A stretch of 64,000 nt of DNA, taken from the NCBI GenBank assembly GCA_019057475.1, contig DXJO01000038.1, positions 59,725 to 123,724 of the forward strand, written 5' to 3'. Made by a program: the position numbers and the translations under genes. This stretch comes from Candidatus Thorarchaeota archaeon (lineage in GTDB: Archaea > Asgardarchaeota > Thorarchaeia > Thorarchaeales > Thorarchaeaceae). Under the pieces are notes generated by a model. That model had not been told where the DNA came from. It saw nothing but the letters and a program-made list of their open reading frames with translations, and did not search any database. This document shows, piece by piece, positions 32,092 through 62,896 of this stretch. Every line of letters begins with the position of its first letter. The stretch's first letter is position 1.

Positions 32092-33423
32092 TCACTGTTC
32101 TACGTCATCAAAGGTAGCAACTCGCATGGTCGCAGGTTTCTTCTCGATGTCAGCCTTCGCAGCTCCAATCAGCAGTTTTACCTTCTTGCTGTTCGCCACG
32201 TCAACTAGGCGTTGCGTAACAACACCATCGAAAATCACGGCATCAACGGAGTCCTGTGACTCCAATGTCCTGGCTAAGTCAGCAACCCCGCATTCAACTA
32301 GGACTTTCTGATCGCTGCCAAACAGAACAGCTTTGAACGATTCCTTGACATCGGTCACCGCCTTAATGTAAGCCGCATCTACATTCTCAGTCGACAGTCT
32401 GGGTGTTCTACCTCTTCTCGGTGTTTCAGCACGTTTAGTCGTAGTTCTCTTAGGCGCCCGAGCGTGCATAGTCCGAGTTTTATCCGGCGTCCTAGTGCGT
32501 GTGATTCTAGTCCTCCCGGTCTTTCGAAACGCCTCCTCTCTCCTGGGCTGGCGTCTTATCTTTGCAGGTGCCTTTACCTTTCGACTACTAACAAGAGCCA
32601 AAGCTTGGTCCGCCGGTATCCTAGTCTGCAAAGCCTTAGTCACTTGACGACGTGAGAGTTCTTCGACCTCCTTTCCCTCAGGAGCCCTTGCGATGTAGTC
32701 TACATTAGCTACTTGCATTAGCTCACGAAGGATTAGATCCCCACCACGGTCCCCATCGAGGAACGCGATTGTTGTCATTCCTCTCTTCTTTGTCAAGTCG
32801 ATGACTGTTTTGGGCACACGTGTTCCCTCAACGGCGATTGTGTTGTTGATTCCCATCTTCATCAGGTTGATTATATCCGCTCTGCCCTCAACAATGATAA
32901 TCTCCTTGCTGCCAGCAAGTTCTGGACCTGCTGGAAGCTTATCCAGCCCATACTTGGCGACGTTCCTCTTGCTGGCCTTCGTGACAGCAGACGTTATCTC
33001 ATCCGACCCGGGGGCTATGTCCTCTTCCCATCCTTTGAGTATGCTAATTGCCCGGCTTACAACCTTTCTACGCTTGGCACCTCGGATATCCTCAAGCTTC
33101 AACAATGTAACCTTGGCCACACAAGGGCCTACCCGATCGACGGTTTCTAGGGACGCTGCCAAGATTGCTGTGGCTGTCTTATTGAGTGATACTGGAATCA
33201 CTACTTCGCCTTTACTCTTGCCGCCTTGGGATCTGATGACAATCTGAATTCTTCCAATTCTACCTGTTCGCTGAAGTTCTCTTAGGTCAAGATCCTCTCC
33301 AAGAAGTCCCTCTGTCTGTCCGAATACTGCCCCAACGACATCCGGCTTGTCGACTACCCCATCTATTTCGATCTTTGCTCTAATGACATATTTTGCCGTA
33401 GAGCTATCGAAGTCTGTACCCAT
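32092..33423 (-). CDS. dnaG: Archaeal DnaG (exosome-associated, TOPRIM)
   Basis: KYVIRAKIEIDGVVDKPDVVGAVFGQTEGLLG, IIVEGRADI, FLDGDRGG, FDGVVTQRL. Confidence 0.96.
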   Translation of the reverse strand: MGTDFDSSTAKYVIRAKIEIDGVVDKPDVVGAVFGQTEGLLGEDLDLRELQRTGRIGRIQIVIRSQGGKSKGEVVIPVSLNKTATAILAASLETVDRVGPCVAKVTLLKLEDIRGAKRRKVVSRAISILKGWEEDIAPGSDEITSAVTKASKRNVAKYGLDKLPAGPELAGSKEIIIVEGRADIINLMKMGINNTIAVEGTRVPKTVIDLTKKRGMTTIAFLDGDRGGDLILRELMQVANVDYIARAPEGKEVEELSRRQVTKALQTRIPADQALALVSSRKVKAPAKIRRQPRREEAFRKTGRTRITRTRTPDKTRTMHARAPKRTTTKRAETPRRGRTPRLSTENVDAAYIKAVTDVKESFKAVLFGSDQKVLVECGVADLARTLESQDSVDAVIFDGVVTQRLVDVANSKKVKLLIGAAKADIEKKPATMRVATFDDVEQ

Positions 33424-33890
33424 CTATTTTCTACTCCTATTGTCTTCTCATATGATACTGCCATGTGTACGCCTCCGACTGACCGAGTCTCCGCCTAGAT
33501 GGCTCGTCACAGCCTATGCTATCTCTTCACATTCCGTTTGGAATGAACTACCAACTACCGCGGCAATGATTCATGACATTTGTGAAATGATGATTGTGAT
33601 ATGATAATCCCGTGAATGATGATGGTCCTTAGACCAGCGTAATGGTTTCTTACGGCTCGCTCTTGAGCCAGAGGAACCACATGGCATTTGTAATATGATG
33701 ATTTTATGATATGCAAAGTTTCACTGGAACATGTCCAGCAGTACTCTACACATAAAAAAAGGGAATGTATCTATTTGAAGCTGTCGCTGTTAACATATGG
33801 TCTTGCAATTCAAAAGCTTCCGCTTCGCCAATCGATTGCAGTTCGCGCCAATTAGCAATGCTAATAACAATCCATGTTTAGGTTCTCAAG

Positions 33891-34140
33891 TCCGGATTTA
33901 ACACGCCCGGCCGCGAGGGCGCACTGAGATTTGCTCGATGATGTGTTGCGCAAAGGCTGGGAAACAGTCTGGATTCAGCCTGTTGAATACCATTTGGACG
34001 AGCCACAACGGACTCGTATGATAGGGATGTAAATCCTCAGATGAATCATGGGTCACCCTGGTTTCGTACATTGACAGGCCGGTCAGTGCCATAATGTCCC
34101 GGCACGAGACAGCTCAGTGGAGCCGGAGGTAACCTCTGAC
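33891..34140. ncRNA. Candidate structured non-coding RNA of unknown family
   Basis: Long-range helix CACTGAG/CTCAGTG enclosing several hairpins, including GGAT-GTAA-ATCC; no convincing ORF. Confidence 0.45.
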
Positions 34141-34194
34141 GCTGTGATACTGGGAGTTAGTGTGATGGGACACAGGCATTGACCACCATCGTAG

Positions 34195-34869
34195 TTAGAC
34201 TTCTACAGACTCGCCGGGCTTGACAATCTCAACCTTTACTTCTGGAACTTGCTTGTTCACAAGACGCTTGAACTCCGCAGGGTCTGCCTGGATGACCGGG
34301 AAGGTGTCGTAGTGCATCGGAATCACAACGCGTGGCTTGATTAGCTCAGTAGCCGCGGCGGCCTGGTGGACATCCATAACATAGTATGATCCAATAGGCG
34401 CAAAGAATACGTCGGGTTCATAGAGCTGTCCGAACAGCTTCATACTGGCAAACACACTAGTATCCCCTGGATGATAGAAAGTGCCACTGGGAAATCTGAC
34501 GATGAAACCAGTAGGCGCTCCCACTCCACATGAATGAAACGCCTGCACCAGTGTCACGATTACACCATCAATATCCACACTACCGCCAATGTTCAGAGTG
34601 TGAACGTTCTTGGCACCCCCCTGCTCTCGTGCTTGGATTGCCAGCTCGTTTATTGCTACGAAGTAGGCTCTGGTCTTCTTGCAGATCTCGAGCGCTTCTG
34701 AATAGCCATGGTCCCCGTGATCATGAGTGACAAGCACAATGTCCGCTTTATCTACATCTTTGACCTTCATCGGTGAGGTTGGACCATTCAACCAAGGGTC
34801 AACATATACAGTCTTGCCATCTGCTTCAACCTTGAATGAAGCGTGACCGAGATATGTAATCTTCATCAT
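34195..34869 (-). CDS. Metallo-beta-lactamase-fold hydrolase (UPF0173)
   Basis: ITYLGHASF, VDPW, THDHGDH, YHPGDT, IPMHY. Confidence 0.92.
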   Translation of the reverse strand: MMKITYLGHASFKVEADGKTVYVDPWLNGPTSPMKVKDVDKADIVLVTHDHGDHGYSEALEICKKTRAYFVAINELAIQAREQGGAKNVHTLNIGGSVDIDGVIVTLVQAFHSCGVGAPTGFIVRFPSGTFYHPGDTSVFASMKLFGQLYEPDVFFAPIGSYYVMDVHQAAAATELIKPRVVIPMHYDTFPVIQADPAEFKRLVNKQVPEVKVEIVKPGESVEV

Positions 34870-62653: not shown

Positions 62654-62896
62654 TTGAACTTGAGACGACTTGGCAAGGTCATTCACATCTCTAAGAGAGG
62701 GGCTCTCATTCTACGTACCGAGAAGACCCCGCCGTTGGGACATGACGCCATAGTTGTCGATGTGAAGGTGAACAAGGTTGGTACCATTCTCGATGTTTTT
62801 GGTCCTGTGAAGCAGCCGTATGTTGCAATACGTCCATTTCAGAAGAAAAATCTCGAGAAATTCCTCGGACAGGTGCTCTATCTATACAAGAGATGA
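62654..62896 (+). CDS. gar1: H/ACA RNP protein Gar1
   Basis: LGKVIH, VG.I.DVFGPV..PYV; GGAGG RBS upstream. Confidence 0.9.
   Translation: MNLRRLGKVIHISKRGALILRTEKTPPLGHDAIVVDVKVNKVGTILDVFGPVKQPYVAIRPFQKKNLEKFLGQVLYLYKR

Follow-up and report, generated by a model that had tools for sequence, protein, structure and literature searches.

A candidate three-hairpin box H/ACA guide sRNA related to HgcG (Pab40) beside dnaG in a Thorarchaeota genome

The locus, its transcription signals and its distribution

The window analysed here, a stretch of 64,000 nucleotides from a Candidatus Thorarchaeota genome, contains a 770-bp intergenic gap between a Toprim/DnaG-type gene (32092-33423) and an MBL-fold hydrolase gene (34195-34869), both carried by the minus strand. 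Within this gap lies a plus-strand RNA gene of about 300 nt, at approximately 33889-34184. An initial annotation of the same DNA had marked 33891-34190 as a multibranch non-coding RNA of roughly 250-300 nt, probably on the plus strand and devoid of any credible open reading frame. The interval proved to be non-coding, and the choice of strand was borne out by folding: for 33885-34195 read on the plus strand, the energy is -120 kcal/mol (z = -3.8) and is equalled by none of 100 dinucleotide shuffles, as against z = -0.24 for the minus strand. The DNA of the locus is retained in all 24 same-family genomes searched with blastn, at identities of 67-98%.

At gathering thresholds, no Rfam family reaches its cutoff at the locus. 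Below threshold, a full-length plus-strand match to HgcG/Pab40 (RF00064) was obtained at 25 bits (E = 1e-4; threshold 77). Neither RNase P RNA nor SRP RNA, whose motifs had not been recognised in the interval, has a covariance-model match there. The former is encoded elsewhere in the genome, at C42:8090-8434 (171.9 bits), and the latter at C54:119886-120193 with 95 bits, just under the threshold of 96.5 bits. Intron-bearing tRNAs and an archaeal 5S rRNA, also present in the Rfam scan, are in keeping with a Thorarchaeota genome.

The RNA is preceded by a candidate TATA box, CTAATAAC, at 33861-33868 on the plus strand, about 25 nt 5' of the first base of the RNA, which is also the first clasp base of the structure described below. 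Another motif, TTCGCGCCAATT (CGCGCCA), is located within 33843-33868, about 15 nt upstream of the CTAATAAC box. Both show almost no variation in about 30 Thorarchaeota loci aligned on the RNA 5' end, and the near-invariance of CGCGCCA spans Thorarchaeota genera. From its position and conservation, CTAATAAC is a candidate promoter, while the TTCGCGCCAATT motif may extend the promoter or bind a transcription factor. In most relatives, the last clasp strand is succeeded by T-rich tracts, which presumably act as a transcription signal.

Since blastn matches are confined to the family, a covariance model of the whole RNA (R1) was needed beyond it. R1 finds one copy each in 71 of the 151 Asgard genomes sampled. 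Copies adjoin dnaG also in Methanomethylicota and related lineages. Far outside Asgard archaea, either the sRNA or its helix-69 hairpin alone was seen next to dnaG (loci L076-L107), and a match is present at 68 of 77 dnaG loci. In Methanomethylicota, Thermoproteota and Nitrososphaerota MAGs it lies about 1.2 kb upstream of dnaG on the same strand, and in Woesearchaeota, Nanoarchaeota and one Methanosarcinales MAG 200-300 nt upstream.

A second conserved element occupies 33578-33722 (plus strand) of the window, between dnaG and the RNA gene. It consists of repeated AUGAUGA, GUGA and UGAUAA boxes around a variable hairpin; its box blocks are at least 80% conserved in 26 Thorarchaeota loci, and its plus strand folds into a long hairpin (z = -2.9, compared with -1.3 on the minus strand). 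Rfam snoRNA models gave only weak matches to this element, and a CUGA D box is absent from it. Possible identities are a K-turn-rich sRNA and an L7Ae-binding element.

Fold and covariation

The structure was read from single strands that remain conserved and paired strands that vary in an alignment of 22 family members. The resulting proposal contains three H/ACA hairpins and 84 pairs; across the alignment 91.5% of positions are paired as proposed and 53 of the 84 pairs are changed on both sides, while sliding the partners by one to three columns leaves 35-40% paired. Taken individually, the stems are 82-100% paired in the 22 relatives, with compensatory changes. In 29 distant homologs, none of which entered model building, 87.6% of positions are paired and 80 of 84 pairs are compensatory. 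This second alignment was fitted to the model structure, and its pair counts are thereby inflated towards the model; nevertheless, slid controls of only 36-45% and the occurrence of up to six pair types per pair argue that the helices are real.

All three hairpins are built alike: above the lower stem (P1) come a pocket, the upper stem (P2), a K-turn and an apical stem, and an ACA box stands 3' of P1. This box is conserved across the 22 family members, apart from AUA in hairpin 3 of two relatives. Each K-turn combines tandem GA/GA with a bulge of 3 nt whose last base is U (GAU, GAU and UGU in hairpins 1-3), a feature conserved in all three hairpins, and the tandem G.A pairs are predicted to form sheared K-turn geometry. 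Between the distal G.A pair and the base of P2 the distance is 9, 10 and 9 nt in hairpins 1-3, which fits the rule of 9-10 nt formulated for such guides (PMC7075261).

In addition, an outer helix, here called a clasp (O1, O2 and O3), encloses each hairpin, with a 3' strand starting at the ACA or one base after it. Because this strand belongs to a helix of 9-10 bp, each ACA lies in an internal loop, adjoining a helix strand instead of a free tail or hinge. In the 29 distant homologs, the clasps are 84% (O1), 88.5% (O2) and 95% (O3) paired.

Module 1 (33889-33975, plus strand) is closed by O1, in which 33889-33897 pairs with 33967-33975; eight of its nine pairs are changed on both sides in the family alignment, and the helix is also present in distant homologs. 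Hairpin 1 (33906-33966), recognised by stem covariation and a conserved ACA at 33964-33966, has P1 at 33906-33912 with 33955-33961, the 5' guide GCGAGG at 33913-33918, P2 at 33919-33924 with 33943-33949 (one bulged U) and the 3' guide GCAAA at 33950-33954. Its K-turn is composed of UGA (33925-33927), the bulge GAU (33937-33939) and a second GAU (33940-33942). Module 1 is variable in its occurrence. Several Thorarchaeota genera (L054, L021 and other R1 matches of 266-278 nt) have lost hairpin 1, and in them O1 remains as a small bare hairpin. In other Asgard lineages (A2 rows L156, L158, L166, L172 and L175), the O1 clasp has a box C/D-like K-turn, in which, beyond a terminal stem, the 5' strand shows GAUGA and the 3' strand CUGA or CUGG; in Thorarchaeaceae, O1 is a plain helix.

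Module 2 (33978-34079, plus strand) is delimited by O2, formed by 33978-33986 and 34071-34079. This clasp is 94% paired in the family, with five of nine pairs changed on both sides, and all its pairs covary in the distant homologs. The enclosed hairpin 2 (33998-34070) comprises P1 at 33998-34004 with 34060-34067, the 5' guide ACAACGG at 34005-34011, P2 at 34012-34019 with 34045-34053 (one bulged C), the K-turn G.A pairs at 34020-34021 with 34043-34044, the bulge GAU at 34040-34042, an apical stem at 34024-34028 with 34033-34037, the 3' guide CACCCU at 34054-34059 and the ACA box at 34068-34070. P1 and P2 are 92% and 91% paired, respectively, with compensatory changes in both. Alternative local folds of this region, ACGAG/CUCGU (72% paired only) and GGG/CCC, were considered and set aside, as they fit the covariation worse than the H/ACA fold.

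Module 3 (34081-34184, plus strand) is bounded by O3, formed by 34081-34090 and 34175-34184, whose ten pairs are 98% paired in the family, seven of them changed on both sides, and show up to six pair types per pair in the distant homologs. Hairpin 3 (34096-34174) contains P1 at 34096-34105 with 34162-34171 (with an internal mismatch), the 5' guide GAGACAG at 34106-34112, P2 at 34113-34118 with 34149-34154, which is 100% paired, the K-turn G.A pairs at 34120-34121 with 34146-34147, the bulge UGU at 34143-34145, an apical stem at 34122-34129 with 34133-34142, the 3' guide AGUUAGU at 34155-34161 and a conserved ACA at 34172-34174.

The dense nested pairing noticed in the initial annotation belongs to a structured multibranch RNA, but covariation contradicts the global fold that it had drawn, with its long-range helices between the 5' and 3' parts. 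The outer helices UCCGG/CCGGA, CACUGAG/CUCAGUG and CUCG/CGAG are 65-80% paired across relatives, and the proposed hairpins CGCCC/GGGCG, AGGCUG/CAGUCU, AUUCAG/UUGAAU, ACGAG/CUCGU and GUGCC/GGCAC are 55-80% paired; in both groups, changes break pairs instead of compensating. The spurious long-range helices arise from the mutual complementarity of the K-turn regions of hairpins 1 and 3. Two of the earlier hairpins are real, namely GGAU-GUAA-AUCC (34025-34036) and CGGAGG-UAA-CCUCUG (34124-34138), which form the apical stem over the K-turn in hairpin 2 and in hairpin 3, respectively.

Predicted targets in 23S rRNA

The 23S gene of this genome contains a 429-nt group I intron (Rfam Intron_gpI, 113.7 bits) at C46:47946-48374 (L031:1902-2330, minus strand), and target scans were carried out on the organism's own LSU sequence in spliced form, with this insertion removed. 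The first scans, which assumed contiguous pairing and exactly two unpaired bases, returned the hairpin 1 site only; the sites of hairpins 2 and 3 became clear after intron splicing and the use of covariation-defined pockets and published atypical rules. The matches of these two hairpins are short and could occur by chance in 4.7 kb of rRNA, so the case for them draws on position, homology and covariation.

For hairpin 1, one canonical rRNA match is both the best and unique, namely that to U2625 of the organism's own LSU, in UUGC-UU-CCUCG, with 4 + 5 bp. It scores 24, compared with 14 for the runner-up, and is equalled by one of 300 shuffled pockets. The match lengthens to 5 + 6 bp when the pocket is that of the Asgard consensus (UCGAGG and GCAAG). 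U2625 is equivalent to E. coli 2496 and P. abyssi 2588 and, by a numbering offset of 369, probably to yeast Psi2865. The yeast-to-E. coli offset of 369 is supported for 2826/2457 (PMC11077068). In hairpins 1 and 2 alike, 14 nt separate the ACA from the guide base that pairs next to the target, which corresponds to n+15.

The guides of hairpin 2 pair with GGGU and CCGUUG around UUUAGA, in the stretch GGGU-U-UA-GA-CCGUUG. The intron is inserted between the equivalents of E. coli U2580 and G2581, immediately 5' of this stretch, and splicing and guide binding could therefore interact. The pairing amounts to 4 + 6-7 bp at n+15, with mismatches, and is non-canonical, with a conserved C.U mismatch next to the target and, on the 3' side, either an A.A mismatch or extra unpaired bases. 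Its geometry equals that of the Pyrococcus consensus GGGUAACCCU and of H. volcanii SL1, in which the first two U's are paired by two A's and the third U is modified (PMC7075261). By homology, the predicted target of hairpin 2 is the third U of UUU by the PTC (E. coli 2586, H. volcanii Psi2605). Every family member has CACCC in its 3' guide, where other Asgard lineages and Pyrococcus have AACCC. In Thorarchaeaceae, C and not A faces the second U, and in a run of U's conversion is reported to fall on the most 5' unpaired one (PMC7075261), so that E. coli 2585 (2714 in the organism's own spliced numbering) could be the target instead. In other words, the A-to-C change specific to Thorarchaeaceae may shift modification from E. 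coli 2586 to U2585, a universally conserved PTC residue.

The mapping of these sites onto known guides depends on numbering. Pab40 motif 1 has been assigned to 23S 2588 and motif 3 to 2016 in stem-loop 69 (Muller et al., PMC2377435), and for motif 2 of Pf7/Afu4 it was argued that the true target is the counterpart of Pab 2678, a position modified in haloarchaea, fly and mouse (PMC2377435). An offset of 92 between P. abyssi and E. coli was checked on the statement about RluE, RluC and RluB in the same work (2549, 2697 and 2672 become 2457, 2605 and 2580). With this offset, Pab 2588 and 2678 equal E. coli 2496 and 2586, and Pab 2016 falls in helix 69. Consistently, the organism's own targets 2625 and 2715 (spliced numbering) are 90 nt apart, the same distance as between 2496 and 2586.

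Hairpin 3 matches helix 69 in ACUAAC-UAUGA-GUCUC, forming 6 bp with ACUAAC and 5 bp with GUCUC. Its predicted target is the helix-69 loop UAUG (E. coli 1915/1917; 2045 and 2047 in the organism's own spliced numbering), in the atypical "UVUN" mode of sR-h45 SL2. Five bases (UAUGA) are left unpaired, one more than in the tested UVUN case, and the spacing of 16 nt from the ACA gives n+17/n+19, exactly the value reported for H. volcanii SL2. As another possible target of hairpin 3, LSU 2309 was rejected, since pairing there would require three G.U pairs and an opened lower stem, and it is no site of the related guides compared.

Guide and rRNA sequences also change together. The helix-69 segment reads GGGACUAACUAUGAGUCUC in all seven available family LSU genes and GGGAGUAACUAUGACUCUC in other Asgard genomes, including the sister family (G025). 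In parallel, the 5' guide of hairpin 3 is GAGAC in the family, facing GUCUC, and GAGAG in other Asgard archaea, facing CUCUC; on the sequences compared, this shift is a compensatory guide-target change. For hairpin 2, genome G009 has CCGUC in place of CCGUU in its rRNA and GACGG in place of AACGG in its guide (A to G in the guide against U to C in the rRNA). G027 agrees with this change. An exception is G030, another Asgard genome, which keeps AACGG although its rRNA reads CCGUC. In the 23S gene of the sister-family genome G025 (L123, about 1800-1835), helix 69 is directly followed on its 3' strand by some 800 nt of inserted sequence, next to the hairpin 3 target.

Interpretation and known guide systems

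The plus strand of approximately 33889-34184 is read here as a three-hairpin box H/ACA guide sRNA, most probably the Asgard ortholog of Pab40/Pf7/Afu4 (HgcG), with a probability of about 0.9. By analogy with established archaeal H/ACA RNPs, L7Ae would bind the K-turn of each hairpin and Cbf5-Nop10-Gar1 would bind the lower stem and ACA box, while the pocket strands would base-pair with the 23S rRNA sequences flanking a uridine, which Cbf5 would isomerise to pseudouridine. Genes for such proteins are present in the genome. Nop10 was found at 72.9 bits and Gar1 at 35 bits, the latter in the window at 62666-62884 (plus strand), about 28 kb from the sRNA; a Cbf5-type TruB has its TruB_N domain in a 344-aa frame, with matches at C42:8995-9336, and two L7Ae-family genes occur. 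The Cbf5-type TruB gene is separated by a few hundred bases from the RNase P RNA gene (C42:8090-8434). Proteins of M. jannaschii or P. furiosus have functioned across species in the papers cited. On this reading, an ACA placed inside an internal loop would have to bind Cbf5, and our guess is that the clasps let each module fold independently and protect the RNA.

The suggestion of the initial annotation that the RNA was either a new family or a very divergent known one holds in its latter half, as a box H/ACA guide sRNA and HgcG counterpart; the former half is given up. An unrelated new family of structured RNA, with long-range helices joining its 5' and 3' parts, would be in keeping with the lack of any Rfam family above threshold, with the good fold of the plus strand and with helices that do exist in this single sequence, but these helices break in relatives through A.C and C.A changes, all defining H/ACA features readable from sequence are present and the pockets match three known pseudouridine sites, which makes such a family very improbable. 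It is scarcely credible that the interval is a short coding gene or serves dnaG or the MBL-fold hydrolase as a cis-regulatory UTR. The minus strand does carry short ORFs of 42 and 64 aa, and relatives show stop-free frames of 48-109 codons; however, the length of these frames varies among relatives, the helix positions show compensatory changes, the structure resides on the plus strand while both neighbours are on the minus strand, and the RNA has its own conserved TATA-like box.

It also has to be considered that the RNA is a genuine H/ACA RNA of which only some modules still guide; in this family, degeneration or retargeting may have affected hairpin 2 or its exact site. The C that faces U2585 in all family members, where other lineages have A, speaks for this, as do the loss of hairpin 1 altogether in some Thorarchaeota genera and the report that Pab40 motif 2 was retargeted by single-base changes (PMC2377435). 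Nevertheless, the stems and both guide strands of hairpin 2 are strongly conserved, and one guide change tracks a change in the rRNA, which argues for a working guide; this alternative is regarded as unlikely. The preferred reading remains that of an RNA with three guiding hairpins.

What is new here is the extra clasp of 9-10 bp closing each module, the kind of guide itself being known. The clasp helices occur also in other Asgard lineages and in Methanomethylicota. A more ambitious proposal, that clasped H/ACA RNAs are a distinct ancient architecture of Asgard archaea and Methanomethylicota, accompanied by a separate shift from 2586 to U2585, is put forward as a tentative and rather doubtful one. 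Such an architecture, absent from the studied euryarchaeal RNAs, could have a function of its own, in setting the order of assembly, in shielding the RNA from the exosome or in letting modules fold independently.

Asgard archaea are the closest known relatives of eukaryotes, and a previously unrecognised RNA gene of theirs is now annotated, of a kind that current Rfam models miss. Three or four pseudouridines are predicted in functional centres of the ribosome, namely in helix 69 and at two sites around the PTC. The Pab40/sR-h45 guide set emerges as ancient, widespread and often linked to dnaG. The clasps and the C opposite U2585 raise the questions of how an ACA outside a free tail is read by Cbf5 and what determines the choice of target uridine. 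The known picture of H/ACA RNPs stays as before, and nothing in it is overturned.

H/ACA RNAs of archaea are described as containing between one and three hairpins, the ACA being placed in a tail or hinge (PMC7075261, PMC11077068); a literature search on Asgard or Nitrososphaera H/ACA RNAs found no description. The closest known system is Pab40/Pf7/Pho40/Afu4 (HgcG, RF00064) of Thermococcales and Archaeoglobus (PMC2377435), which likewise unites three H/ACA motifs in one RNA. The two share the order of targets (E. coli 2496, 2586, the site proposed for Pf7/Afu4, and helix 69), K-turns, ACA boxes and similar pocket sequences, with GCGAGG in motif 1 and GGGU(A/C)ACCCU in motif 2. In the Rfam HgcG consensus the hairpins abut, with ACA followed by the next lower stem, whereas in the present RNA each hairpin has a covarying clasp of 9-10 bp. 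The base facing U2585 is A in HgcG and C in the present RNA, and the hosts are euryarchaea and an Asgard archaeon, respectively. As the RF00064 threshold is missed, the Asgard RNA is called a distant homolog or ortholog on the grounds of architecture and targets, and not a member of the family as Rfam defines it.

The sR-h45 RNA of Haloferax volcanii (PMC7075261, PMC5029457) has the same targets, order and spacings as hairpins 2 and 3. Its SL1, acting at n+15, directs Psi2605, which is the third U in the UUU run that lies between helices 90 and 93, and its SL2 directs both helix-69 uridines from unpaired UAUG at n+17 and n+19, the UVUN mode having been demonstrated experimentally (PMC7075261, PMC5029457). 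Two A's of SL1 pair with the first two U's, while in hairpin 2 of the present RNA only one does; in helix 69, sR-h45 leaves four bases unpaired and the present RNA five (UAUGA). sR-h45 consists of two stem-loops with a 56-base region between them; it is without the hairpin for E. coli 2496, and clasp helices are not described for it. The two-module RNA of the Thorarchaeota genera that have lost hairpin 1 has the same target set as sR-h45. Finally, the atypical H/ACA-like sRNAs of Pyrobaculum and Sulfolobus islandicus (PMC11077068) are also Cbf5-dependent guides with a K-turn, and sR148 of this group likewise targets helix 69 (E. coli 1917). Compared with them, the present RNA possesses an additional basal helix in every module.
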